Origin: a virus
Taxonomy: Duplodnaviria; Heunggongvirae; Uroviricota; Caudoviricetes
Virus record (IMG/VR): IMGVR_UViG_2617270988_000017
DNA length: 12,893 nucleotides
Strand: one strand, 5' to 3'
Under the pieces are notes generated by a model. The model saw nothing but the letters and a program-made list of their open reading frames with translations. It was not told where the DNA came from and searched no databases. Position numbers and translations under genes: made by a program. Positions 1 to 10,948 of the stretch are shown piece by piece. The stretch's first letter is position 1, and each line of letters starts with the position of its first letter.

Positions 1-1461
1 ATGAAAAAATTACTGCATCTTTTTTTCCCGCTCTCGCTGCGGGTACGTTTTCTGTTAGCAACGGCAGCAGTAGTATTGGTGCTTTCGCTTGCCTACGGAA
101 TGGTTGCGCTGATCGGTTATAGCGTCAGTTTCGATAAAACCACGTTTCGGCTGTTACGTGGCGAGAGCAATCTGTTCTATACCCTTGCGAAGTGGGAAAA
201 CAATAAGTTGCATGTCGAGTTACCCGAAAATATCGACAAGCAAAGCCCCACCATGACGCTAATTTATGATGAGAACGGGCAGCTTTTATGGGCGCAACGT
301 GACGTGCCCTGGCTGATGAAGATGATCCAGCCTGACTGGCTGAAATCGAATGGTTTTCATGAAATTGAAGCGGATGTTAACGATACCAGCCTCTTGCTGA
401 GTGGAGATCATTCTATACAGCAACAGTTGCAGGAAGTGCGGGAAGATGATGACGACGCGGAGATGACCCACTCGGTGGCGGTAAACGTCTACCCGGCAAC
501 ATCGCGGATGCCAAAGTTAACCATTGTGGTGGTGGATACCATTCCGGTGGAGCTAAAAAGTTCCTATATGGTCTGGAGCTGGTTTATCTATGTGCTCTCA
601 GCCAATCTGCTGTTAGTGATCCCGCTGCTGTGGGTCGCCGCCTGGTGGAGTTTACGCCCCATCGAAGCCCTGGCAAAAGAAGTCCGCGAACTGGAAGAAC
701 ATAACCGCGAATTGCTCAATCCAGCCACAACGCGAGAACTGACCAGTCTGGTACGAAACCTGAACCGACTGTTAAAAAGTGAACGCGAACGTTACGACAA
801 ATATCGTACGACGCTCACCGACCTGACCCATAGTCTGAAAACGCCACTGGCGGTGCTGCAAAGTACGCTGCGTTCTCTGCGTAGTGAGAAGATGAGCGTC
901 AGTGATGCTGAGCCGGTAATGCTGGAGCAAATCAGCCGCATTTCACAGCAAATTGGCTACTACCTGCATCGTGCCAGTATGCGCGGCGGGACATTGCTTA
1001 GCCGCGAGCTGCATCCGGTCGCCCCACTGCTGGACAATCTCACCTCGGCGCTGAACAAAGTGTATCAACGCAAAGGGGTCAATATCTCTCTCGATATTTC
1101 GCCAGAGATCAGCTTTGTCGGTGAGCAGAACGATTTTGTCGAGGTGATGGGCAACGTGCTGGATAATGCCTGTAAATATTGCCTCGAGTTTGTCGAAATA
1201 TCTGCAAGGCAAACAGACGAGCATCTCTATATTGTGGTCGAGGATGATGGCCCCGGTATTCCCTTAAGCAAGCGAGAGGTCATTTTCGACCGTGGTCAAC
1301 GGGTTGATACTTTACGCCCTGGGCAAGGTGTAGGGCTGGCGGTAGCCCGCGAAATCACCGAGCAGTATGAGGGTAAAATCGTCGCCGGAGAGAGCATGCT
1401 GGGCGGTGCGCGGATGGAGGTGATTTTTGGTCGCCAGCATTCTGCGCCGAAAGATGAATAA
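1..1461 (+). CDS. phoQ: Sensor histidine kinase PhoQ of the PhoPQ two-component system, complete
   Basis: The 486-aa translation reads as E. coli PhoQ essentially end to end from memory (MKKLL...[15 protein letters not shown]; periplasmic acidic patch EDDDDAEM; H-box [12 protein letters not shown]; C-terminal [12 protein letters not shown]). ATG at 1, TAA at 1459-1461. Confidence 0.97.
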
Positions 1462-2815: not shown

Positions 2816-3358
2816 TTACTCGCCTTTCTTCTGTAGCAACTTTTCCGGTACGTTTCCGGTTGTTTCTTTCAAGTAATCAGTCAGTATCTGTGGGAGGTTG
2901 TCGGCAACTCTGGCACTGGCATTACAGGCTTTAACCACTTCCCTTTTAAGCCTATCCAGCATGGCGGGGGTAATCTGTGGGAAGCTCCTTTGCATAGTAA
3001 GCGGGAGGCTGTCCATGATTGATGAAATCTGACTCGCCAGCTTTGAAAGCGCGTACAGGCAAAACTCAGTATCAATCACGTCACCGCGATCGCGCTCGTT
3101 TTTAAGTTCCTGCGCCTCCGCCTGTGCTGTCAGTAATCTGATCCTGACTCGTAAGAGTTCATCATCATCAATATCGCCTTTGTCGTTTGTAAGCTGGCTA
3201 ATTGCATTGTTAACCCTATTGTCTATCACGCTGGCAACATCATAAAACGCCTCACGGCCTTTACGTTCAACGGGAGTCACTCCCCACTTGTCGAACGCTG
3301 TCGCACTTACACGGCAGCTTTTCGCCATGTTTTTTTTGTTCATCAGGTGCGATTTCAT
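2816..3358 (-). CDS. Terminase small subunit, lambda Nu1 family
   Basis: The 180-aa product aligns along its length with lambda Nu1 recalled from memory: N-terminal winged-HTH region (NKKNMAKSCRVSATAFDKW vs NKKQLADIFGASIRTIQNW) and C-terminal region (LTAQAEAQELKNERDRGDVIDTEFCLYALSKLASQISSIMDSLPLTMQRSFP vs LTRAQADAQELKNARDSAEVVETAFCTFVLSRIAGEIASILDGLPLSVQRRFP). ATG at 3358-3356. Confidence 0.9.
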   Translation of the reverse strand: MKSHLMNKKNMAKSCRVSATAFDKWGVTPVERKGREAFYDVASVIDNRVNNAISQLTNDKGDIDDDELLRVRIRLLTAQAEAQELKNERDRGDVIDTEFCLYALSKLASQISSIMDSLPLTMQRSFPQITPAMLDRLKREVVKACNASARVADNLPQILTDYLKETTGNVPEKLLQKKGE

Positions 3359-3360
3359 TA

Positions 3361-3534
3361 ATACACCAACTTAATTACTGCTTCAGGTTGGTGTATTGTT
3401 TGCATCTTTCCCTTTTTATTCATAAAGATAGATCAAACAACGAAACCACCACCACCCCCCTGAAAAGGCTCATAAATAGCGAAAAACCGCTAGGTCGCCG
3501 CCCCGTAACGGGCCATAATTCCAGGAAGGACCCG
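3361..3534 (-). other. Lambda-type cos site, right copy (cos-R): cosQ-like, cosN, divergent cosB, directly upstream of terS
   Basis: 3493-3534 is the near-perfect reverse complement of 2593-2635 (42 of 43 positions, one 1-nt indel), with the cosN 12-mer AGGTCGCCGCCC at 3492-3503. On the minus strand it continues CGGTTTTTCGCTATTTATGA (lambda-like), then diverges (CAGGGGGGTGGTGGTGG) and ends in the 10-bp inverted repeat ATACACCAAC (3361-3370) / GTTGGTGTAT (3387-3396) beside the terS ATG. The cosN-cosB-terS order and orientation match lambda. Confidence 0.75.
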
Positions 3535-3535
3535 T

Positions 3536-3558
3536 AAAAAAGCCGGATTTCTCCGGCC
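3536..3558 (-). terminator. Rho-independent terminator ending the capsid operon
   Basis: Minus-strand stem GCCGGA-gaaa-TCCGGC followed by T6 (plus-strand A-run 3536-3540), 6 nt after the stop of the 137-aa ORF. Confidence 0.75.
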
Positions 3559-3563
3559 TTGTC

Positions 3564-3977
3564 TCAGATGGTTTTCAGTATGCGATCGATGTCGCCGTCA
3601 TCGCCCTGGTTTCTGCCATCGTATGCCATGCCAGCTGATACGGCTTGCGGGCTGTGCATGTCCATAAAGTTTTCAAAGGCTGCGGTAAGTTCCGGCGCAA
3701 CCTTCGGACGTTCCTGCTCTATGGTCATGCTAAGGATGCTTTTAGCCGTACCAACATCGATACAAGGCACGTTTGCCATTGCACGCAACAGCGGCTGATA
3801 GTCTTTATGCTCATGAAGCGCCATAATCGCATCAGCGCGCGGCTTGTCCTGCTCTTCCAGTTTGTTTAGTTGATATACGGCCTCATAGGTTGATAAACCT
3901 CTGTCAGCCATTGCCCGCGCTTCGACTTTAAATTTACTCGCCAGCGGTAGCGTCATGATGCTTTCATTCGTTGCCAT
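3564..3977 (-). CDS. Hypothetical protein, 137 aa, last gene of capsid operon
   Basis: ATG at 3977-3975 is preceded by a strong SD (AGGGGGAA) and follows the decoration-gene stop with a short gap. No family recognised. Inferred to be capsid-associated from context only. Confidence 0.65.
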   Translation of the reverse strand: MATNESIMTLPLASKFKVEARAMADRGLSTYEAVYQLNKLEEQDKPRADAIMALHEHKDYQPLLRAMANVPCIDVGTAKSILSMTIEQERPKVAPELTAAFENFMDMHSPQAVSAGMAYDGRNQGDDGDIDRILKTI

Positions 3978-3989
3978 CGTTCCCCCTGC

Positions 3990-4325
3990 TTATCGGGCCA
4001 GCGGCTGAACGGATACGCCGGAACCCGCAAAGGCGGCGCATTTTTTCGCATCGGTGTCGACGCTCTCAGGCCAGTTAACGGCGGCAATATTGAATATCCC
4101 CGTCTTGTAACACTGTGCTGATTTCTGCTTTGACGTGCCCACAGGGTACGAGGTCAGATAAACAGCCTTGCCAGATTCCTGACCATCCCACGGCTTAAAC
4201 TCGCCATTGTCTGCCAGCATCAGCGGGGTAAATTCCTGAATAACGCCAGCATCAGCGGCAAAATGTACCAACGTCGTGGATACCTGCTGACTGCCTGCAA
4301 ATAACTCAATGTATGGAGTGTCCAT
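3990..4325 (-). CDS. Head decoration protein, lambda gpD family
   Basis: The 111-aa product matches lambda gpD from memory ([23 protein letters not shown] vs [59 protein letters not shown] vs [36 protein letters not shown]). SD GGGGGGA upstream of the ATG at 4325. Confidence 0.85.
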   Translation of the reverse strand: [111 protein letters not shown]

Positions 4326-4337
4326 AGAATCCCCCCG

Positions 4338-5393
4338 TTAACCAATTTTGACGGTAACAAATTTGCGAATATCTGCCGGTACCGGCTGCGGTGCACTGTG
4401 TGTCTGCACGTACTCAATCGCCGGATCGCCGTCCTCAATCCAGTTTTTCGGGTAAAACATGTTTTGTGTTGCGCCCGTTCTTACCGCTTCCTGATCCATT
4501 ATCGCACCATAGGCCACCAGCCCTTTATTGTTGGTGTTACCCAGGACCAGCAAATCAGGCTCAAGGAAATATTTTTCGGTACCATCGCTGTCAGTGTATT
4601 TGCCGGAATAGACGATAAGGGCCAGATCACCAAGATAGCCTTTAAAGCTCACCACTTCGCCCAGGTTTTTACAGGCCAGTTCGGCGGCGGATTCTGAACC
4701 ACGGGAAAGATCGTACAGCTCACGGAATTTTTTAAAGCTGCCTAATGTGCGCCATACCTCAGCGCCCATAATCATGACGTTTGCGGGGCAACCAGCCTGA
4801 TCAGCATAAAGCTCGATGTCATAGATTGGGTCGTGCATGTCTTTATCCTGCTCGGACCATTTTTTACCCTTGGCCTGCTCTATGATGCAGTTTTCCGGTA
4901 TTTTCCAGTCGATTTCATAGCGTTCTATGCCTTCGCCCTCAATGATGTTTTTTCCGGTCGTTACCGCATTCACCGCCAGCCATTCCACGCGTGCCTTAAT
5001 GGCGTTTATCTGGCGGCGCATGTTGCCAGTAATCAGGCGCATACGGCGATAGGTAGGGTCGTTAAGCTGTGCCGGATCTTCTCCAGCCATGCGCATGATG
5101 GTTTTCGTTGGATCGATTTCGTGCTTTGGCTTCATGTAGCCAGGTTTGATTGTGCTGGTTTCGTACCCTTTATCGCGCTGAACCTGGCTACCCACCATAG
5201 GCGAACAAAACGCCGACATGGTGACTTCTTCAATGTCCAGGGTATCCAGCATGATGTTTTGCGTGCTGAATGTCGCCACGTTCGGGAAAAACAGCGTGGT
5301 AAACAGAGGGCTGAATTTAAAATCCGCAATATCCCCGCGATTCAGGTACATGAAAAGCTGGTTAGTGTTAAGTGCCGTTGCTTTGCCTGCCAT
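4338..5393 (-). CDS. Major capsid protein, lambda gpE family (HK97 fold)
   Basis: The 351-aa product aligns with lambda gpE over its full length by eye, at moderate identity (for example KPGYMKPKHEIDP vs TPGYVKPKHEVNP; DPTYRRMRLITGNMR vs DPAYRRRRIIMQNMR; LVLGNTNNKGLVAYGAI vs MVLGNTQARGLRTYGCI; YPKNWIEDGDPA vs YPKNWVTTGDPA). SD GGGGGTGA. The E-then-D gene order is the reverse of lambda. Confidence 0.92.
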   Translation of the reverse strand: MAGKATALNTNQLFMYLNRGDIADFKFSPLFTTLFFPNVATFSTQNIMLDTLDIEEVTMSAFCSPMVGSQVQRDKGYETSTIKPGYMKPKHEIDPTKTIMRMAGEDPAQLNDPTYRRMRLITGNMRRQINAIKARVEWLAVNAVTTGKNIIEGEGIERYEIDWKIPENCIIEQAKGKKWSEQDKDMHDPIYDIELYADQAGCPANVMIMGAEVWRTLGSFKKFRELYDLSRGSESAAELACKNLGEVVSFKGYLGDLALIVYSGKYTDSDGTEKYFLEPDLLVLGNTNNKGLVAYGAIMDQEAVRTGATQNMFYPKNWIEDGDPAIEYVQTHSAPQPVPADIRKFVTVKIG

Positions 5394-5599
5394 TATTCAC
5401 CCCCATAATTTTTATGCATCCCAAGCGCCGCAAGTAAATAAGAGCGTACAAGTGAACCTATCGACGGCTCCGGCGTCATCAGCGGATCCAGTCCAGCCGC
5501 AACGCCAGCTTCATAGTTTTTTTTGTGGCGCTGCTTGAGCACCTCCACGATTTCGGGGCTTATGTACACCGAAACACCGCCTTTTTTCTCTTCAGCCAT
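5393..5599 (-). CDS. Hypothetical protein, 68 aa, first gene of capsid operon
   Basis: In-frame ATG at 5599 (MAEEKKGG...) preceded by GAGG. Its stop overlaps the capsid-gene start (TAATG), implying translational coupling. The track's longer start at 5632 has no SD. Confidence 0.5.
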   Translation of the reverse strand: MAEEKKGGVSVYISPEIVEVLKQRHKKNYEAGVAAGLDPLMTPEPSIGSLVRSYLLAALGMHKNYGGE

Positions 5600-5649
5600 A
5601 GTAAGAAATTCCTCTTCGACTAAAAAAATCATAACTGGATGTTTATCCA

Positions 5650-5684
5650 GTCCTGATTATAATCAGAATTGCATTTTATGCAAT
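5650..5684 (-). promoter_or_regulatory. Candidate sigma70 promoter for the capsid operon, embedded in two palindromes
   Basis: Minus strand reads TTGCAT (5683-5678), a 16-nt spacer, then TATAAT (5661-5656). The -10 lies inside the perfect 14-bp palindrome CTGATTATAATCAG (5653-5666) and the -35 inside TTGCAT-ttt-ATGCAA (5669-5683). The first ORF starts about 55 nt downstream. Confidence 0.5.
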
Positions 5685-5764
5685 GATATTGAGTTATGTT
5701 GCAAATTATGAAATGATTATCCCGATCACGAACGCCAGTGCATCCAAAAACCTCATATGCAAAA

Positions 5765-5802
5765 GCCCGATAAGAACCCTCTGACCTTATCGGGCTTTTT
5801 TT
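5765..5802 (+). terminator. Rho-independent terminator, plus-strand orientation, probably bidirectional
   Basis: Stem GCCCGATAAG (5765-5774) / CTTATCGGGC (5786-5795) with a 11-nt loop, followed by T7 (5796-5802). There are four U on the minus-strand side. Confidence 0.6.
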
Positions 5803-5808
5803 GGGCGC

Positions 5809-5830
5809 AAAAAAGCCGGATTGCTCCGGC
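5809..5830 (-). terminator. Rho-independent terminator downstream of the 74-aa cassette ORF
   Basis: Minus-strand GCCGGA-gcaa-TCCGGC followed by T6. Same stem sequence as the terminators at 3536-3558 and 6172-6194. Confidence 0.7.
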
Positions 5831-5850
5831 TATGTGTGCTGTGTGCTGGC

Positions 5851-6075
5851 TCAGTCTCTGATCTCTTTCAGAAATTCTATCAATGCATCTATCTGTTCAG
5901 GATTTACCGCCAGCATTTCACCGGATAGAGCACATCTCACAAAACCATGCTGATCCTTTTCAATCAGTGCGCCCGTCTCCAGGAATGCGCGGTAATCATT
6001 GATGCTCATCGTCTCCATGTTGTCAGCATGGTATTTATCACGCTGTTTTAATATCTCATCAAATTTCATCGGCAT
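5851..6075 (-). CDS. Hypothetical protein, 74 aa, terminator-insulated single-gene cassette (moron-like)
   Basis: ATG at 6075 with SD AGAGGAA about 10 nt upstream. Intrinsic terminators lie both upstream (6172-6194) and downstream (5809-5830, 5765-5802). No family recognised. Confidence 0.6.
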   Translation of the reverse strand: MPMKFDEILKQRDKYHADNMETMSINDYRAFLETGALIEKDQHGFVRCALSGEMLAVNPEQIDALIEFLKEIRD

Positions 6076-6171
6076 TGTTTTTTTCCTCTGTTGTGTCTGT
6101 TTGTTTCAGATAGTAACTATGCCTGACCGTGACGAAAACCCGGTAATGCGCCATACCGTTTCAACTGGTGC

Positions 6172-6194
6172 AAAAAAAGCCGGATTTCTCCGGC
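6172..6194 (-). terminator. Rho-independent terminator ending the replication/regulatory operon
   Basis: Minus-strand GCCGGA-gaaa-TCCGGC followed by T7 (plus-strand A-run 6172-6178), 8 nt after the perC-like stop. Confidence 0.75.
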
Positions 6195-6201
6195 TGTTTG
6201 A

Positions 6202-6474
6202 TTAGCTGTCCTGGTAATTGCGCCATATTTCATCACCAGCACCATCTATACCCATTTCGGCATAAGTGCGATCGACTGCCTTTTTCAGGTCTCCGAAATT
6301 ATCCGGCGGCTCCGGTGCCCTCTGTGCCTTCCTTGAACATTCCAGCCGTCGCATCGTGATGTGATGCCGTTCCTTGTCTGTCTCCACCAGCTGCATGACT
6401 TCACCCCATCGCGCCGCCGCCCTCCGGTAAAAGCCTTTCGCCTCCAGTTCCTCCGCTATGCGGTCATGTACCAT
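6202..6474 (-). CDS. PerC-family transcriptional activator-like protein, 90 aa
   Basis: Start MVHDRIAEELEAKGFYRRAAARWGEVM carries the PerC/Pch-type N-terminal motif as I recall it. ATG at 6474 has a strong SD (GAGGGGGTGA). The track's longer version overlaps ssb and is rejected. Confidence 0.65.
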   Translation of the reverse strand: MVHDRIAEELEAKGFYRRAAARWGEVMQLVETDKERHHITMRRLECSRKAQRAPEPPDNFGDLKKAVDRTYAEMGIDGAGDEIWRNYQDS

Positions 6475-6484
6475 CGTCACCCCC

Positions 6485-6895
6485 TCAGAACGAAATATCA
6501 TCACCGTAAGAGTCATCGCCTCCCGCTGGTGGCTGATTACCCTGTGTGCCTGTGGTTTTGCGTCTGTTCCCGCCTGGACGTGCCGCGCGGGCACTGATTA
6601 CGCTGTCTGCGATAACCTGCCAGCCCTGCCGCGTTTCTCCGTTCTGTCCGGTCCACTGGCTTACCTGCATCGTGCCGGATACGCTGGCAACATCGCCTTT
6701 TTGATGTTTAGCCAGGAAGTCGGCCTGTTTGCCAAATGCGATGACCGATAACCATAACGTCGCCTGTCCGTCCTGTGCCTGGCTGCATGGCAAAGATACC
6801 GCCATACGCGCCAGCGTCATCGGTGTGCCCTTGCTGGTCTGTTTTACCTGCGGGTCGTCCACCAGCCGCCCGTAAGCGGCTATCTGTGCCGTCAT
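6485..6895 (-). CDS. ssb: Single-stranded DNA-binding protein
   Basis: 136 aa with an OB-fold-like N-terminal region, a Gly/Pro/Gln-rich linker (GTQGNQPPAGGDDSYG) and an acidic C-terminal tip DDISF resembling the SSB DDDIPF tail. The start overlaps the upstream stop (ATGA). Confidence 0.85.
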   Translation of the reverse strand: MTAQIAAYGRLVDDPQVKQTSKGTPMTLARMAVSLPCSQAQDGQATLWLSVIAFGKQADFLAKHQKGDVASVSGTMQVSQWTGQNGETRQGWQVIADSVISARAARPGGNRRKTTGTQGNQPPAGGDDSYGDDISF

Positions 6896-7348: not shown

Positions 7349-8743
7349 GCGGCGCTACATCATCCCCATCGATACGAATAACCCCATCTTTTTCCAGCTT
7401 GTACAGCCAGCGCCGGAAGTTTTTCATTTCATACCCCAGCTTTTTCATGTCATCACGTAACAGCGGGATCGTGCACTTGTCGCCGTTCTGTGTGCGTGAA
7501 CGGATGCACCCCCATAGCGCGGTATGGTTTTCCGTCTTGTTCCCTGCCTCCTCGATGCGCTCCAGTTCAACAGGAGGGCGCGGATCATCCACCACCACCA
7601 GCGACGTGATTAATTCACCGTCAGCGTCGGTAAAAAGCTCCACCACGCGTAAGTCATATGCGGCTTCTTTGAGTTCCTCCGCGTCCTTCATTTTGGTGCA
7701 TGAGATAACCAGCGCTTCGCTTCCTGCGTCCTCCCTGCGTATCCGGTATTCAGCATCCAGCGAAGCACGAAATGCACTGGAACCGCGCGCGCCTTTCGTC
7801 TCATCCTTGCCGGAATGGTGAACCACCAGCACCGTGGCCCCTGTGCGTCGTTTCAGTTCGTCACAACCACGGATAAACGCCCCATATCACGGGAATCATT
7901 TTCATCATTCCCACCAAAGCAACGCGCCAGCGTATCCAGAATAATCATGCGTACAGGTTTACCCGTTTCCCGCTCCACCTGACGGGCAGCGATAACCATT
8001 TCATCAACATCAAGCGGGGCAGCCGGAAAGATGGGGCGGTTTACCAGATACAGATTTTTCACCTGCTCATCGTGCACAACCTCCCAGGCTTTTACACGAC
8101 GCGGAACACCTATACCGCCTTCACCAACCACATAGAGAACCGCACCATGTGCAACCCTGCGGCCTCCCCACTGGCGACCAGTGGCAACATGGCACGCCCA
8201 CGATCCGGCAAGGAATGATTTATAGGACCCGCTAGCCCCGTATATGCTGCATAGCGATACCGCCGGAATAATCCCCTTAACCACGTAATCCAGTTGCGTG
8301 TCGTATCCGGTAGATCCAACGCTCATCGGTAGCGTGGTTTTTCGCTGGTGGTTTTTTTCTTCCGCCGGCTCTTTCCCGCGCACCCGTTCCAGGTATTCGC
8401 GCCAGTTCTCCCGCATATGGCTGTGCATCCCTTCGGGGTAATAATTCGCATCAGTTACACCCGCCGCCGCCAGCTTGTGCGCAATGGCATTAATATTTGA
8501 TGGCCTGATGTGGCCTGCCTTGTACAGCCGGACACAATAGCGCCCCTCGTCGATGATTCTCAGGTCTGCCAGTTCATCCAGTTGATCATCAGCCAGCACA
8601 ACGGGAGGCACATTATCGCCAGCCAGTCGCCCGTCCTGTTCCTGCCACTGTTTCGCATGTGCCCAGGCATCACTACCCGCAAAAATAATGACTTCGGTCA
8701 TCTTGTCGTAAGGCTGTTTTTTTAAGTTCGGTGCGCTTTTCAT
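7344..8743 (-). pseudogene. Replication protein (primase/helicase-like, RepA-type P-loop ATPase with C-terminal winged-helix-like tail); reading frame interrupted near 7880
   Basis: The N-terminal ORF (8743..7853) has a Walker-A-like GASGSYKS and ILDTLARCFGG. The C-terminal ORF (7832..7344) continues in another frame with VVHHSGKDETKGARGSSAFRASLD, typical of RepA/AAA_25-like ATPases. The total span is 1400 nt, not a multiple of 3. The frames join if the G4 run (plus-strand CCCC 7880-7883) is G5, giving ...DSRDMGAFIRGCDELKRRTGATVLVVHH... Confidence 0.7.
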
Positions 8744-9039
8744 TTCTTGCCCCTGAATCCGTTAACCATGGTTTTCAGCTTCTGGATGTTTGCCCGTGCC
8801 CTGGCGTTGCTGGTGGGCACGTTATGCGGCGCGGTCTGTACCAGAGAAAAATCACGCCGGAACTGATAAACAGGCATCACGCAATCATATTCGTAACCTT
8901 CACGGCGGTAAGTTACGCACCGTCCCGCCACGCCCTTAATCATTACCGTGCCGCCGTACTGGTCGCGGTAAATATCACCGCGCGTAAATTTAGGGTGAGT
9001 GTTGCCACTGGCAGTTAAGCCAGAATATTTAAGTTTCAT
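8740..9039 (-). CDS. Hypothetical basic protein, 99 aa
   Basis: ATG at 9039 with GGAG upstream. The stop overlaps the rep start (ATGA). No family recognised. Confidence 0.55.
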   Translation of the reverse strand: MKLKYSGLTASGNTHPKFTRGDIYRDQYGGTVMIKGVAGRCVTYRREGYEYDCVMPVYQFRRDFSLVQTAPHNVPTSNARARANIQKLKTMVNGFRGKK

Positions 9040-9501: not shown

Positions 9502-9715
9502 AACCCCCCCCATTTTCACAATCAGCAACAAGAATATTTTTAGCGTCATTCAGCGACCGCGTTGCGATGTATCGGATACATTCCAGGGCGAACTGTGTCC
9601 GGTCTTTCTGTTCTTCTCCCTGCGCAAGCTCTGCAGTGCATTCAATATCGATAAGCGCGTGCATCAGCGTAGTGAGCGCGTCGGCTGCTGCGTCCGGTGT
9701 GGTTTTATTGCACAT
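9494..9715 (-). CDS. Hypothetical small acidic protein, 73 aa
   Basis: ATG at 9715-9713 (MCNKTTPDAAADAL...) preceded by a strong SD (AGGAGGTG). It ends in NGGGYA encoded by a G8 run and overlaps the next start. Confidence 0.6.
   Translation of the reverse strand: MCNKTTPDAAADALTTLMHALIDIECTAELAQGEEQKDRTQFALECIRYIATRSLNDAKNILVADCENGGGYA
9504..9511. repeat. C8/G8 homopolymer at a gene junction
   Basis: Eight consecutive C on the plus strand (G on the coding strand). It encodes the GGG tail of the upstream ORF and lies 2 nt before the ATG of the downstream ORF. Confidence 0.9.
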
Positions 9716-9896
9716 GGCACACCTCCTGACGAATACGGGCGGCGAATACAGCAACACAACCGGACGGGCAACGGCTACGCGCTTCGCGTTCCGTCCAGGC
9801 GGTTACGTGGATGATTTGATGTTCTGACGCGCCAAAGATGATAAAGCGCCAGAGAAAGGCGGTTTGAGAATGTACAAGGGTAGGGATAGTAGCCAT
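9705..9896 (-). CDS. Small protein, 63 aa; possibly Icd-like (host cell division inhibitor family), tentative
   Basis: ATG at 9896 with SD GAGGAGG 8 nt upstream, TAA at 9707-9705. The WRF and FAARIRQ motifs resemble what I recall of Icd-like small proteins from P4-like islands, but this is unverified. A diverged tandem copy lies 369 bp upstream. Confidence 0.5.
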   Translation of the reverse strand: MATIPTLVHSQTAFLWRFIIFGASEHQIIHVTAWTEREARSRCPSGCVAVFAARIRQEVCHVQ

Positions 9897-10056
9897 GTTG
9901 GCAGCCTCCTCAGTGTGGTTAAGATAACCGCCACCGGAAACGCCAATTTCGCTGGTGGCGGACTGTACAGGGTTGGCGTAACCGGACACTGAAGAAACCG
10001 GCGCGGATTGCTCCGCCCCCGTACAGCCCACCATTGATAAGGTGTGACTATGCGGC

Positions 10057-10082
10057 ACAAAAAAACACGCGGGGCGCGTGTT
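10057..10082 (-). terminator. Strong Rho-independent terminator signature inside the upstream tandem copy
   Basis: Minus strand reads AACACGCG-CCC-CGCGTGTT followed by TTTTTTT (plus-strand A7 at 10059-10065). It is GC-rich with an uninterrupted U-tract. Confidence 0.65.
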
Positions 10083-10265
10083 ATGCGCTTCAGTTTTGCC
10101 CAGGACGCCAATCCCGGCACCCGTTTTATGAGGTGCGCGGGAATCATAGCTATTTTCGACACTGGCGATCAACTGGTTTTTTTCTCCGATATTCAGGGCC
10201 AGAAAACGCCACACAAAGGCCGTTTGTGTGTGTACAAGGTGTGGTATATGATTTACGGCAACCAT
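10083..10265 (-). pseudogene. Degenerate tandem paralogue of the 63-aa ORF (or translated leader); no in-frame stop before the terminator
   Basis: ATG at 10265 with SD AGGAG. The first 30 or so codons are homologous to the downstream ORF (PHLVHTQTAFVWRFLAL vs PTLVHSQTAFLWRFIIF) with synonymous and conservative changes. The frame then runs through the terminator without a stop, and a C-terminal-like motif (RVFLCRI vs AVFAARI) appears only in another frame. Confidence 0.35.
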
Positions 10266-10293
10266 AACGGCTCCTAGTTTACGTTGTTGGTTA

Positions 10294-10328
10294 GACGCCC
10301 CGTATGTGTTCCCAGCACTGCGGGGCGT
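10294..10328. promoter_or_regulatory. 8-bp inverted repeat ACGCCCCG / CGGGGCGT with a 19-bp spacer in the divergent control region
   Basis: Arms at 10294-10301 and 10321-10328, in the 5' leader of the minus-strand small-ORF operon and upstream of the RHH promoter. Confidence 0.4.
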
Positions 10329-10353
10329 TGATTTTTGTGTAATGGCAAGTACA

Positions 10354-10395
10354 ATGGTAATTACCATGTAGGTATAGTAATGAAGGGTAATTACC
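10354..10395. promoter_or_regulatory. Two GGTAATTACC operator-like palindromes at the RHH gene promoter
   Basis: Perfect 14-bp palindrome ATGGTAATTACCAT at 10354-10367 and GGTAATTACC at 10386-10395, centres 30 bp apart. The second abuts the RHH ATG. A TATAGT -10-like hexamer is at 10373-10378. Confidence 0.6.
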
Positions 10396-10569
10396 ATGTC
10401 AACACCATTAGAAAAACGTTCGCCTCCATACCAAATGCGATTACCGGAAGACTTCAGAGCGCAGCTAGAAGAAGCAGCTAAGGCCGATGGCGACACATCT
10501 TTAGCCACTTGGATTAAACGCGTTCTCCGCAAAGAATTACAGCAACGCGGCATAGAACCCAAAGGATAA
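10396..10569 (+). CDS. Ribbon-helix-helix (Arc/CopG-like) DNA-binding protein, 57 aa
   Basis: ATG at 10396, TAA at 10567-10569. The product MSTPLEKRSPPYQMRLPEDFRAQLEEAAKADGDTSLATWIKRVLRKEL has the typical RHH pattern (beta-strand YQMRLP, then two helices). It is absent from the ORF track because it is under 60 aa. Confidence 0.7.
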   Translation: MSTPLEKRSPPYQMRLPEDFRAQLEEAAKADGDTSLATWIKRVLRKELQQRGIEPKG

Positions 10570-10611
10570 AAACTATCAGCGCCGTGGTGTGAGGTATTAC
10601 GGCGCATTGCT

Positions 10612-10800
10612 ATGCAGGACAACACAATGACCGATAAAGAATTGACCAAAACATTATCACCGGCACGGAAAAGACGGCGCAGAAAGATAGAGCATGAATC
10701 AGAAAGATTCGCGCCATGTGCTTTTGCCCTTGAGCAATTCCTTAAAGAGTACAGGGAAAAGCGCTCATTGCAGGTATGGCAACGAACTGAACCAGACTGA
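10612..10800 (+). CDS. Hypothetical small basic protein, 62 aa, downstream of the RHH gene
   Basis: ATG at 10612 (alternative ATG at 10627 with AGGA upstream). It contains an ARKRRRRK basic patch. The coding call is weak. Confidence 0.4.
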   Translation: MQDNTMTDKELTKTLSPARKRRRRKIEHESERFAPCAFALEQFLKEYREKRSLQVWQRTEPD

Positions 10801-10894
10801 TTGCATTGCCCACCAGCCTGATAGCGGCTATCATCCCCGTGCTTATGTTTGGGATCACATACACATAAGGCGCAGCGGGTTAATTGTTCAGAAA

Positions 10895-10922
10895 GGCGGC
10901 TCCATATCGGGGCCGCTTTTTT
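10895..10922 (+). terminator. Rho-independent terminator between convergent alpA and the RHH operon
   Basis: Stem GGCGGCTCC (10895-10903) / GGGGCCGC (10909-10916) followed by T6 (10917-10922). Confidence 0.65.
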
Positions 10923-10948
10923 CGTGTTTGTCATATCTGTGATACCCG

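Follow-up and report, generated by a model that had tools for sequence, protein, structure and literature searches.

Gene content and setting of the locus

We analyzed a 12,893-nt stretch of DNA (the window), which its gene annotation identifies as a PICI satellite of E. coli lying between phoQ and roxA. In Sakai and EDL933, this site is occupied by Sp7/CP-933C/OI-51 (PMC3378721; PMC1890555), and the window island is allelic to Sp7/CP-933C. The two differ in their packaging genes: Sp7/CP-933C/OI-51 is the cf-PICI EcCIEDL933, with an HK97-type capsid/protease/portal/terminase module, whereas the window has lambda-type genes for capsid, decoration, and scaffold-like proteins. The order of genes in the window runs from a RepA helicase, ori, ssb, and perC through a cassette with a 74-aa ORF to the packaging operon (Table 1). 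The perC-family gene is the last of an operon that terminator A is predicted to close, and 5'RACE of the Sakai-type operon placed pchE on a constitutive polycistronic RNA starting upstream of ECs1586 (PMC7369912). On the other side of the cassette, the promoter region of the packaging operon is conserved in related PICIs.

As the initial annotation had described, a single small gene with its own RBS lies between the replication/regulation and capsid genes; it is on the minus strand. Its 74-aa product is identical to ECs_1589 at 73 residues. In Sakai and EDL933, the gene (ECs1589 and EDL933_1785; sequence of the latter in the PMC4765031 supplement) follows pchE, with leader and both terminators as in the window. 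In that island and in the window alike, it is an unstudied “hypothetical protein”. The island also encodes the regulators PchE and RgdR. The ORF is not RgdR, which in the window island is a 99-aa DUF4222 protein (8740-9039) with an RGD at residues 20-22. Nor is it “hypothetical gene 1792” of the cf-PICI paper, since it corresponds to EDL933_1785.

The position of the cassette matches a published location. He et al. 2024 (PMC11364771) described a mid-PICI accessory region adjacent to pri that is able to carry immune genes (Tai). The cassette likewise lies mid-island, adjoining a replication gene on its downstream side and preceding the packaging genes, with content that varies among related islands, and its gene shares with the genes of that region that it is unrecognized by PADLOC or DefenseFinder. 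We read the cassette as an optional accessory unit of this mid-PICI accessory region.

Table 1. Features of the cassette and its flanks (window coordinates)
Feature	Coordinates	Strand	Description
Capsid/decoration/scaffold operon promoter region	5633..5760	-	Downstream flank; palindrome-rich; TTGCAT, 16-nt spacer, TATAAT; 11.8 bits
Long hairpin upstream of packaging-operon promoter	5761..5802	both	14-15 bp stem; 7 U on plus strand, UUUUG on minus strand
Terminator B (predicted)	5809..5831	-	Ends cassette; AGCCGGAGCAATCCGGCT then U-run
74-aa ORF (Sakai ECs1589, EDL933_1785)	5851..6075	-	phrog_1957; acidic
Leader, terminator A to start codon	6076..6171	-	~95 nt
Conserved proximal leader	6085..6138	-	54 nt; promoter candidate, CA-rich untranslated stretch, Shine-Dalgarno AGAGG (6085-6089)
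Terminator A (predicted)	6172..6195	-	Upstream bound of cassette, ends ssb-perC transcript; AGCCGGAGAAATCCGGCT then 7 U
perC-family gene (PchE-like)	6202..6474	-	Upstream flank; Pfam PerC, E 1.2e-42; annotation
Third terminator copy	3537..3558	-	Directly 3' of scaffold-like gene; repeat search

Terminators, repeat, and leader

Terminators A and B are both predicted, from their sequences, to be intrinsic (Rho-independent), each combining a G+C-rich hairpin with a directly following U-run. Terminator A begins 7 nt past the perC stop and consists of a 7-bp stem (6178-6195, 5 G-C pairs), a 4-nt loop, and seven U (6172-6177 plus a shared A). None of 200 shuffles folded equally well (Delta-G -12.6 kcal/mol, z -3.9), and this terminator was kept in all cassette-bearing loci. 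Terminator B begins 19 nt past the ORF stop, with its stem at 5814-5831 and its U-run at 5809-5813 (-12.5 kcal/mol, z -2.9); it was conserved in 6/6 aligned cassettes and is the copy left in islands without the cassette. Taken overall, the terminator scan found 28 candidates vs. 14.6 +/- 3.9 in the shuffled background, an excess of about twofold only, and our confidence in the two terminators therefore comes from fold energies and from hairpin conservation in related islands.

The initial claim of intrinsic terminators on both sides is borne out by A and B, with a refinement for the hairpin that had been read as a further downstream terminator at 5765-5802. This long hairpin, which lies outside the cassette, is better read as bidirectional (an insulator) or as a plus-strand terminator. 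Its arms (5761-5774 and 5786-5799) fold at -20 to -21.7 kcal/mol, with z of -4.6 on both strands, and it is present without the cassette in EcCICFT073 and other lambda-type-capsid PICIs. Because EcCICFT073 has the hairpin and no cassette, we assigned it to the upstream region of the packaging module. A separate annotated ORF overlaps the cassette terminator and is probably spurious.

Terminators A and B are copies of one sequence, forming a 28-nt direct repeat with 89% identity and a spacing of 364 bp (partner 5809-5836). The 22-nt core of this repeat occurs in three copies in the window vs. 0.00 expected. The same terminator sequence was found 3' of ssb in strain SF-166 and 3' of the scaffold-like gene in CFT073, and it is reused at several operon ends in this PICI lineage, standing after ssb, perC, the 74-aa ORF, and the scaffold-like gene.

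The leader is close to the ~100 bp of upstream region that had been proposed, and it contains a ribosome-binding GAGG (6085-6088) 9 nt ahead of the ATG. Among six diverged cassettes, only 1 of 54 columns in the proximal leader was variable. Third codon positions were less constrained, with 17 variable among 74 (Fisher p=5e-4), as was the distal leader, with 8 among 33 columns (p=0.0015). A search for an RNA element in the leader gave no Rfam match and an unremarkable fold (z -1.17). We also tested whether the leader is a relic of the perC 3' end and whether it shares motifs with packaging promoters, and neither idea held.

Presence, absence, and exchange of the unit

In EcCICFT073 and some cf-PICIs, perC is followed by one terminator copy and no cassette. 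The sharpest comparison was between two cf-PICIs, one with the unit, like the window and Sakai (L004), and one without it (L003). These differ by an exact 363-bp indel made up of the ORF, its leader, and one terminator copy, which is exactly one repeat period. The 27-bp terminator was used by both flank alignments, and the flanks were 97.4% and 93.7% identical. Comparing the window with EcCICFT073 gave the same presence/absence picture, the upstream edge being less sharp. We observed three states in the interval from ssb to the capsid promoter (nothing, perC, or perC plus the cassette), and the unit is variably present in islands of two packaging types. Across 840 genomes, similarity broke off at about 5801/5810 and 6174. 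Breakpoints also occurred near the third terminator copy, but not exactly on it, so this copy is only approximately a mosaic boundary.

Because the unit sits directly after the perC terminator, its ORF lies between two copies of that terminator. We infer both the direction of the event, insertion vs. deletion, and its mechanism: recombination inside the 22-28-nt terminator repeat may have added or removed the unit, either through homologous exchange between islands or through short-homology exchange by helper-phage recombinases. This resembles the conserved boundary or linker sequences of lambdoid-phage module junctions in the Susskind-Botstein modular theory, in that a short conserved sequence recurs at the ends of gene modules and at the breakpoints between islands. 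Unlike those linkers, the one in PICIs looks like a functional intrinsic terminator in its own right, and recombination would occur at it.

The cassette interior was detected in 541 of 5426 complete E. coli genomes (~10%), with at least 80% of it covered in 539 of these, and perC-type sequence was detected in 963 genomes. Carriers included O157:H7, O145, O26, O103, and O55:H7 strains and the model cf-PICI EcCIEDL933. EcCICFT073, which lacks the cassette, is induced, replicates, and transfers at high frequency (PMC6092414; PMC6739421). The composition of the cassette also differs from its surroundings, with a GC content of 43.4% vs. 54.9% in perC, 58.4% in ssb, and 49.7% in the capsid gene, and a GC3 of 0.47 vs. 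0.57-0.62 in the neighbors.

Promoter and transcription

A consensus promoter scan returned no site for the cassette. The best weight-matrix sigma-70 candidate (TTTTCG at 6133-6138, a 17-nt spacer, and TACTAT at 6110-6115) scored 8.1 bits, a value matched by 21% of random 140-nt stretches of the window. The stretch that holds this candidate is nevertheless nearly invariant (the proximal leader with its single variable column). As far as the sequence can tell, the cassette has no convincing or demonstrable sigma-70 promoter, so that independent transcription is at most putative.

Transcripts do exist, at least for the Sakai allele. In published RNA-seq of O157, ECs1589 had log2FC values of -2.31 and -2.44 (p about 0; a ~5-fold fall) after 12 h in SOS-inducing SMX-TM. 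This significant fall indicates that transcripts are present in untreated cells, and it was observed in the 99%-identical Sakai allele rather than in this exact island. Because the published table gives fold changes, not abundances, transcription from an own promoter and read-through are not separable in it. The resident prophages include no proper helper for the island of ECs1589, which therefore was probably not induced under these conditions. The gene is likely transcribed in the integrated island as well, either from a weak or atypical promoter in the 54-nt proximal leader or by read-through of the short perC terminator.

These results bear on two points of the initial annotation. It had held that a complete absence of transcripts would count against a functional cassette, and the ECs1589 transcripts in untreated O157 cells speak to the contrary. 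It had also described the cassette as autonomous, with its own expression; the downstream terminator and the uninduced transcripts fit this description, and for the promoter there is a candidate only, whose score about a fifth of the background reaches.

A small acidic protein family of satellites and island-like contexts

The ORF is under purifying selection, as judged from its sequence, with dN/dS of 0.06-0.19 and runs of synonymous codon replacements. The gene is thus conserved in related elements, and the possibility raised at the outset that it might not be can be set aside. The protein (~8.6 kDa, net charge -6, pI 4.8) matches the 82-position profile of phrog_1957 along its full length (residues 1-74; E 2.3e-42). 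The same family, which carries no annotated function, is matched by all 18 aligned members, 17 of which have a net charge of -2 to -9. Homologues are rare: at E<=0.001, HMMER found only 21 representatives among 1.84 billion proteins. The named ones are all from Enterobacterales, and full-length homologues in other genera share 31-48% identity. A 1383-aa repeat protein (P0033) among the HMMER matches was an apparent compositional or repeat artefact and was left out. A single-protein search of the genome collection returned Shigella alone, and tblastn of 50,697 phage records returned no relative.

Known profiles and folds offered little. Neither Pfam nor NCBIfam gave anything above threshold for the protein, and no family of defence profiles in PADLOC-DB 2.0 matched at E<=1. 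Weak matches to DUF7189 and DUF7002 were under the cut-off and inconsistent across family members. Structure prediction and remote homology, the check that had been proposed, yielded a usable alignment-based AlphaFold model (pLDDT 82.9, compared to a poor 52.9 for the single-sequence model) and one weak signal, but no match to a known fold or to a protein of known function. This only remote signal was a family-profile match to residues 82-121 of the N.BspD6I recognition domain (motif fvD..G.lr.t.sGe.lA), a wing-like motif of a DNA-recognition domain, with a whole-sequence E of 2.3e-4 and an i-E of 0.12 for the best stretch. Neither a helix-turn-helix plus wing fold nor a basic DNA-binding surface was found. 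The product would be a small acidic cytoplasmic alpha/beta protein. Judging solely from its charge, its size, and the lack of enzyme or DNA-binding signatures, it probably acts by binding another protein rather than by binding DNA or by catalysis.

All of the loci that we examined for the family were satellites or had island-like contexts, and none was a phage. Wherever enough sequence was available, the context included capsid genes of its own. Distant satellites usually have the homologue as the final gene of their replication module. In cf-PICIs and ClpP-capsid-fusion satellites, it follows the replicase and an ori gap and precedes the capsid module. In the cf-PICI of E. coli SB0258h1 (L018), the start of the homologue overlaps the perC stop, so that the two are translationally coupled with no terminator between them. 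In Arsenophonus, the homologue comes after terL. Overall, the family was found with four replicase types and four capsid types. Recognizable defence genes in the related cf-PICI loci that we examined lie at the opposite end of the island, after terL. Other neighbors in the distant satellites, reverse-oriented genes of 168-170 and 253 aa, had no Pfam or PADLOC match and few or no phage relatives, those being hypothetical or unannotated. The fixed position by the replication module in distant satellites, together with the perC coupling in one cf-PICI, makes the family look like an old satellite resident rather than a freshly imported host-fitness gene. These two features suit a gene of the satellite life cycle no less than they suit cargo.

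What kind of unit is it?

Phage morons, a concept that goes back to Juhala and Hendrix, are exemplified by lambda bor and lom and by the HK97 gp15 region. The initial annotation had called the cassette moron-like, and part of this description stands. Like a moron, it adds a gene where related genomes have two features side by side (L004 vs. L003; EcCICFT073), it has its own predicted downstream intrinsic terminator (5809-5831), its base composition is below that of its neighbors, and transcripts of the Sakai allele exist in the non-induced state. It departs from phage morons in being a 74-aa gene of a satellite (a PICI) rather than a phage, in having a promoter candidate only, in being bounded on both sides by copies of one terminator, in having homologues that in other elements are ordinary members of an operon, with one case of translational coupling to perC, and in belonging to a family absent from 50,697 phage records.

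The explanation that we favor, with a probability of about 0.5, is that the locus represents accessory DNA of an E. coli PICI, an optional gene cassette placed mid-island between the replication/regulation genes and the packaging operon. Its target would not be a specific replicase or capsid, because the family is associated with several types of each and because EcCICFT073 is mobile without the gene. The target may instead be common to Enterobacterales hosts or their phages. A role in host fitness, exclusion, or anti-phage activity is a guess.

A possible, if tentative, alternative is that the gene serves the satellite life cycle as the tail of an early/replication unit, made mainly after helper induction through read-through of the perC terminator and acting on the helper, e.g., binding one of its proteins so as to bias replication, packaging, or interference. 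This would suit a family seen, in the loci examined, only in satellites and island-like contexts and not in phages, with capsid genes of their own in all sufficiently sequenced contexts; a constant place between the replicase with its ori gap and the capsid module in cf-PICIs and ClpP-capsid-fusion satellites; the translational coupling to perC in L018; and the lack of a convincing own promoter. There is also a parallel in the SaPI proteins Ppi, PtiA/M, and CpmA/B, which are small satellite proteins encoded between ori and the packaging genes and which act by binding another protein, as the 74-aa protein may do by analogy. However, the 74-aa protein has no sequence or fold similarity to these, and its gene is dispensable for a related mobile PICI, with EcCICFT073 and some cf-PICIs lacking it and EcCICFT073 fully mobile. 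The unrelated replicases and capsids leave no fixed satellite partner, and the Arsenophonus homologue follows terL. Moreover, uninduced cells contain ECs1589 transcripts, and an SOS-inducing antibiotic lowers their level instead of raising it, although the island was probably not induced there.

We consider it unlikely that the product serves as an effector of anti-phage, superinfection-exclusion, or anti-defence type while the island is quiescent, the functional class that the initial annotation had put forward. Many inhibitors encoded by phages and satellites are small acidic proteins, and this reading would also agree with the optional nature of the unit and the uninduced expression of ECs1589. 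The position fits the mid-PICI accessory region that carries Tai immune genes, but the protein, at ~8.6 kDa, is much smaller than the 26 kDa TaiEcA, and tblastn found no phage relative, whereas Tai homologues are reportedly mostly phage-borne (PMC11364771). Homology to Tai or to the prophage-borne Ati (e.g., phi80 orf63/orf64) was not found, as judged by the phage-record search and protein size rather than by direct comparison, and unlike the Tai/Ati system, the gene has no AtiEcA-like relative in the phage collection. There was no PADLOC match, single 74-aa defence proteins are rare, and the recognizable defence genes of related cf-PICIs are located after terL. Still less probable is a small winged-helix-like transcription factor that cross-talks with host or island promoters, as do PchE (of the PerC family) and RgdR. 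The adjoining perC, the coupling to perC in L018, the presence of RgdR and PchE on the same island, and the whole-sequence match to N.BspD6I residues 82-121 (E 2.3e-4) would fit such a factor, yet the best matched stretch alone reached an i-E of only 0.12, and the family is acidic, would-be recognition helix included. Finally, the shortness of the ORF could suggest that it is non-functional, a frame open by chance where a spacer separates duplicated terminators. This is effectively refuted by the dN/dS values, with their synonymous replacements, and by full-length homologues in other genera; the good RBS and the ECs1589 transcripts also argue against it.

An extension of the accessory-cassette reading, which we regard as doubtful, is that phrog_1957 forms a new class of small acidic effectors with an unassigned fold, limited to satellites. 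Produced while the island is quiescent, they would act on a conserved host or phage protein, e.g., to block incoming phages or host defences, and the 22-28-nt terminator found at several operon ends would double as a recombination joint. If this were true, such a joint would let islands with different packaging machineries swap terminator-bounded gene units.

Implications for PICI biology

The 74-aa gene is present in ~10% of complete E. coli genomes and in the model cf-PICI EcCIEDL933, yet there has been no study of it to date. It lies beside the genes for PchE and RgdR, regulators known to alter virulence, motility, and adhesion, and its region of the island was recently found to host anti-phage genes. 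Even without a phenotype, an ordinary accessory cassette would be on record, along with a probably spurious annotated ORF over its terminator. The terminator repeat offers a simple possible route for accessory-gene swaps among PICIs, and a clear phenotype, if found, would give satellite biology a new small effector family.

Results

The window holds an E. coli chromosomal island lying between phoQ and roxA/pepT, with its genes on the minus strand (see table) and arranged as in EcCICFT073 and other Gram-negative PICIs (PMC6092414). The phoQ-roxA site of Sakai and EDL933 is occupied by Sp7/CP-933C/OI-51 (PMC3378721; PMC1890555), which is the cf-PICI EcCIEDL933 (bioRxiv 2022.09.08.507074). The 137-aa product of the scaffold gene falls in phrog_1999 and is read as Nu3-like because of a second match, to the C-terminal end of phrog_53, a head-maturation-protease family; with the lambda-type capsid and decoration genes, it makes this a "classical" PICI with its own head-shell proteins. 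One short segment is 89.5% identical to the cos/terminase-binding region found in phage 21 and its relatives, which suggests that the island has a packaging site mimicking the one in 21-type helpers. The DUF4222 protein is homologous to RgdR (ECs1581), a published regulator of LEE and motility. Identity to O157:H7 PV15-279 and many other strains is 100% over window positions 5600-6400 and 98.0% over 3150-3950, where strain 2014C-3097 is the best match (99.3%); given this difference, the island is mosaic relative to its closest genomes.

Features of the island and of comparison loci (window positions unless a locus is named)
Feature	Position	Strand	Remark
phoQ	1-1461		island flank
integrase	9705-10934	minus	first in island gene order
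small HTH regulator and Icd-like genes		minus	after integrase
DUF4222 protein gene	8740-9039	minus	99 aa, RGD at residues 20-22
RepA-type helicase		minus	after DUF4222 gene
83-aa ORF		minus	between helicase and ssb
ssb	6485-6895	minus	
perC	6202-6474	minus	
42-aa ORF	6117-6245	minus	probably spurious
terminator A	6172-6195	minus	after perC
74-aa ORF	5851-6075	minus	
terminator B	5809-5831	minus	after 74-aa ORF
third hairpin	5761-5802		
packaging-operon upstream region	5633-5760	minus	
small ORF	5393-5632	minus	after 74-aa ORF
major capsid, lambda-type	4338-5393	minus	
decoration gene	3990-4325	minus	
Nu3-like scaffold gene	3564-3977	minus	
third terminator copy	3537-3558	minus	after scaffold gene
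TerS-like gene	2816-3358	minus	
cos-like segment	2619-2674		
further terminator copies	L027 ~2890-2912; L002 937-959		same sequence
divergent 86-aa homologue	L018 2453-2961		E. coli SB0258h1
reverse-oriented genes, 168-170 and 253 aa	L007 2988-4305; L022/L023 7294-7806		Citrobacter-/Klebsiella-type, directly after homologue
PD-T4-7-like/PD-T7-4-like defence genes; flanking terminase gene fragments (L010/L011)	L010/L011 (Klebsiella) 1-1000 and 14867-16252; L005 14610-15296		after terL

The ORF, its RBS (GAGG, 9 nt before the ATG) and the three hairpins listed in the initial annotation are all present. Terminators A and B have 7-bp G+C-rich stems, 4-nt loops and U runs on the minus strand, with fold energies of -12.6 (z -3.9) and -12.5 kcal/mol (z -2.9), respectively. 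The third hairpin, proposed as another downstream terminator, folds far more strongly (-20 to -21.7 kcal/mol); it has a long U-run on the plus strand and just UUUUG on the minus strand. What had been missed is that A and B duplicate each other as a 28-nt direct repeat with 89% identity and 364-bp spacing, and that a third copy follows the scaffold gene (3 matches vs. 0.00 expected), as it does in CFT073. This sequence, GCCGGAG[A/C]AATCCGGC followed by a T-run, recurs at other operon ends of this PICI lineage. Around the third copy, the similarity breakpoints fall nearby without coinciding with it exactly.

Searching 5426 complete E. coli genomes with 801 bp around the ORF matched 840, in classes whose edges (window ~5801/5810, ~5840-5849 and 6174) are at the hairpins. 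EcCICFT073 and one cf-PICI (L003) carry perC, a single terminator and then their own packaging regions; in the window, in Sakai and in a second cf-PICI (L004), the ORF stands between two terminator copies. The two cf-PICIs differ by 363 bp, with flank identities of 97.4% and 93.7% and a 27-bp terminator common to both flank alignments. The cassette is thus present or absent in two packaging backgrounds, one with lambda-type capsid/decoration and one with HK97-type capsid/protease/portal genes. In strain SF-166, perC is absent too and the terminator directly follows ssb; with the other island states, the interval from ssb to the packaging promoter therefore has at least three states. Of the 5426 genomes, 541 contain the cassette interior (539 covering ≥80% of it) and 963 contain perC-type sequence. 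GC content is 43.4% in the cassette, 54.9% in perC, 58.4% in ssb and 49.7% in the capsid gene. These comparisons establish both the anatomy of the cassette and its polymorphism.

Among six cassettes diverging up to dS 0.31, dN/dS is 0.06-0.19, and the alignment includes four consecutive codons with synonymous changes. The 74-aa ORF is a real gene; a non-gene reading was excluded. The proximal leader (6085-6138, the 54 nt running up to and through the Shine-Dalgarno) has 1 variable column, compared with 17/74 third codon positions (P = 5e-4) and 8/33 distal leader columns (P = 0.0015). A consensus promoter scan found no site, and the sole candidate, TTTTCG-17-TACTAT within the proximal leader, has a score reached by 21% of background windows; an own promoter is possible but unproven. 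The 42-aa ORF, labeled "hypothetical protein" or even "trigger factor" in RefSeq, begins within the perC 3' end and runs across terminator A; it is probably spurious because, where the perC alleles diverge, its N-terminal part is not preserved. The packaging-operon upstream region, kept in EcCICFT073-type islands, has dense palindromes (TGATTATAATCA, TTGCATTTTATGCAA, AACTGGAT....ATCCAGTT) and the best nearby sigma-70-like site (TTGCAT-16-TATAAT, 11.8 bits), and looks like an operator-controlled late promoter.

The Sakai counterpart, ECs_1589, is identical at 73/74 residues and shares the leader and the two terminators; in EDL933, the identical protein is EDL933_1785. According to the RNA-seq supplement for PA20, ECs1589 responded to 12 h of SOS-inducing SMX-TM with log2 changes of -2.31 and -2.44 (P about 0); the values were -1.46 and -1.05 for the PerC-family gene pchE and -2.69 and -2.32 for the capsid gene. 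Since the ECs1589 fall is significant, transcripts were present in untreated cells. Its P-value, far smaller than that of pchE in a table without abundances, hints at more reads than for the upstream gene, which would favor an own promoter. By 5'RACE in the same strain, pchE transcription starts upstream of ECs1586, giving a polycistronic RNA over ECs1586, ssb and pchE, which terminator A would end.

Along its entire length the protein matches phrog_1957; Pfam, NCBIfam and PADLOC gave no match, and no relatives were found in 50,697 phage records. Exhaustive HMMER over 1.84 billion representatives returned 21 proteins at E ≤ 0.001 and a profile search 41 clusters; named members come from E. coli, Citrobacter, Klebsiella, Ewingella and Arsenophonus, to which DNA-level searches add Shigella and Salmonella. 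Members are acidic (66-119 aa; net charge -2 to -9 in 17/18) and share Y28, Q61 and the core DHHGF...SGE..A.N.EQ.D.LIE.L. The alignment-based AlphaFold model (pLDDT 82.9; two helices, short strands and a C-terminal helix) matched no solved or viral structure. The gene is annotated hypothetical and its family is uncharacterized.

At the loci examined, the homologue usually comes last in the replication-side module. In cf-PICIs of other hosts, it comes after the primase and a 130-320-bp gap (where PICI origins lie) and before the capsid gene; in some, a terminator follows it. Klebsiella and Citrobacter satellites have it between a DUF927 primase or AAA_25 helicase and a ClpP-capsid fusion gene, sometimes with a reverse-oriented gene interposed; these 168-170- and 253-aa genes gave no hits in Pfam or PADLOC, have at most a few relatives in phages, and may be cargo carried in the mid-island accessory region. 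A 16-kb Arsenophonus element has the homologue after terL. In SB0258h1, it overlaps the perC stop codon, with no terminator between them and one of different sequence afterward, an alternative and perhaps older arrangement. All these contexts are thus satellites or island-like, whatever the type of replicase or capsid.

Discussion

We give a probability of about 0.5 to the reading that this region is an optional accessory cassette that islands acquire and lose through recombination within the reused terminator. Its gene would be transcribed in the integrated island, and the small acidic product may work by binding another protein, a target presumably common to Enterobacterales hosts or their phages. 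The mid-PICI accessory region holding it was described by He et al. 2024. The initial annotation's moron-like reading is supported in part: the cassette agrees with phage morons on four of five criteria; for the fifth, the promoter, the candidate has only an ordinary score.

In the main rival reading, distinctly less probable, the gene would serve the satellite life cycle, being expressed together with the early genes and acting on the helper. Its conserved position and coupling to perC would fit such a role, yet EcCICFT073 does without the cassette and the partner modules vary. A defence or anti-defence role seems unlikely: the recognizable defence genes of related cf-PICIs (PD-T4-7 and PD-T7-4 type) come after terL, the protein is not recognizable as a Tai relative, and the phage collection gave no match indicative of an AtiEcA-like one. 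Two of these cf-PICIs, L010 and L011, have terminase gene fragments on their flanks, like published helper-embedded PICIs. Least probable is a winged-helix regulator; the sole remote signal, a wing-like motif also present in the recognition domain of N.BspD6I (E 2.3e-4 for the whole sequence, i-E 0.12 for the best stretch), is a lead only.

The optional-cassette reading concerns an island already known and a familiar kind of feature. The gene family is uncharacterized, and for the terminator-repeat boundaries we found no earlier description in the literature as far as we looked; the reused terminator may serve as a shared module linker.
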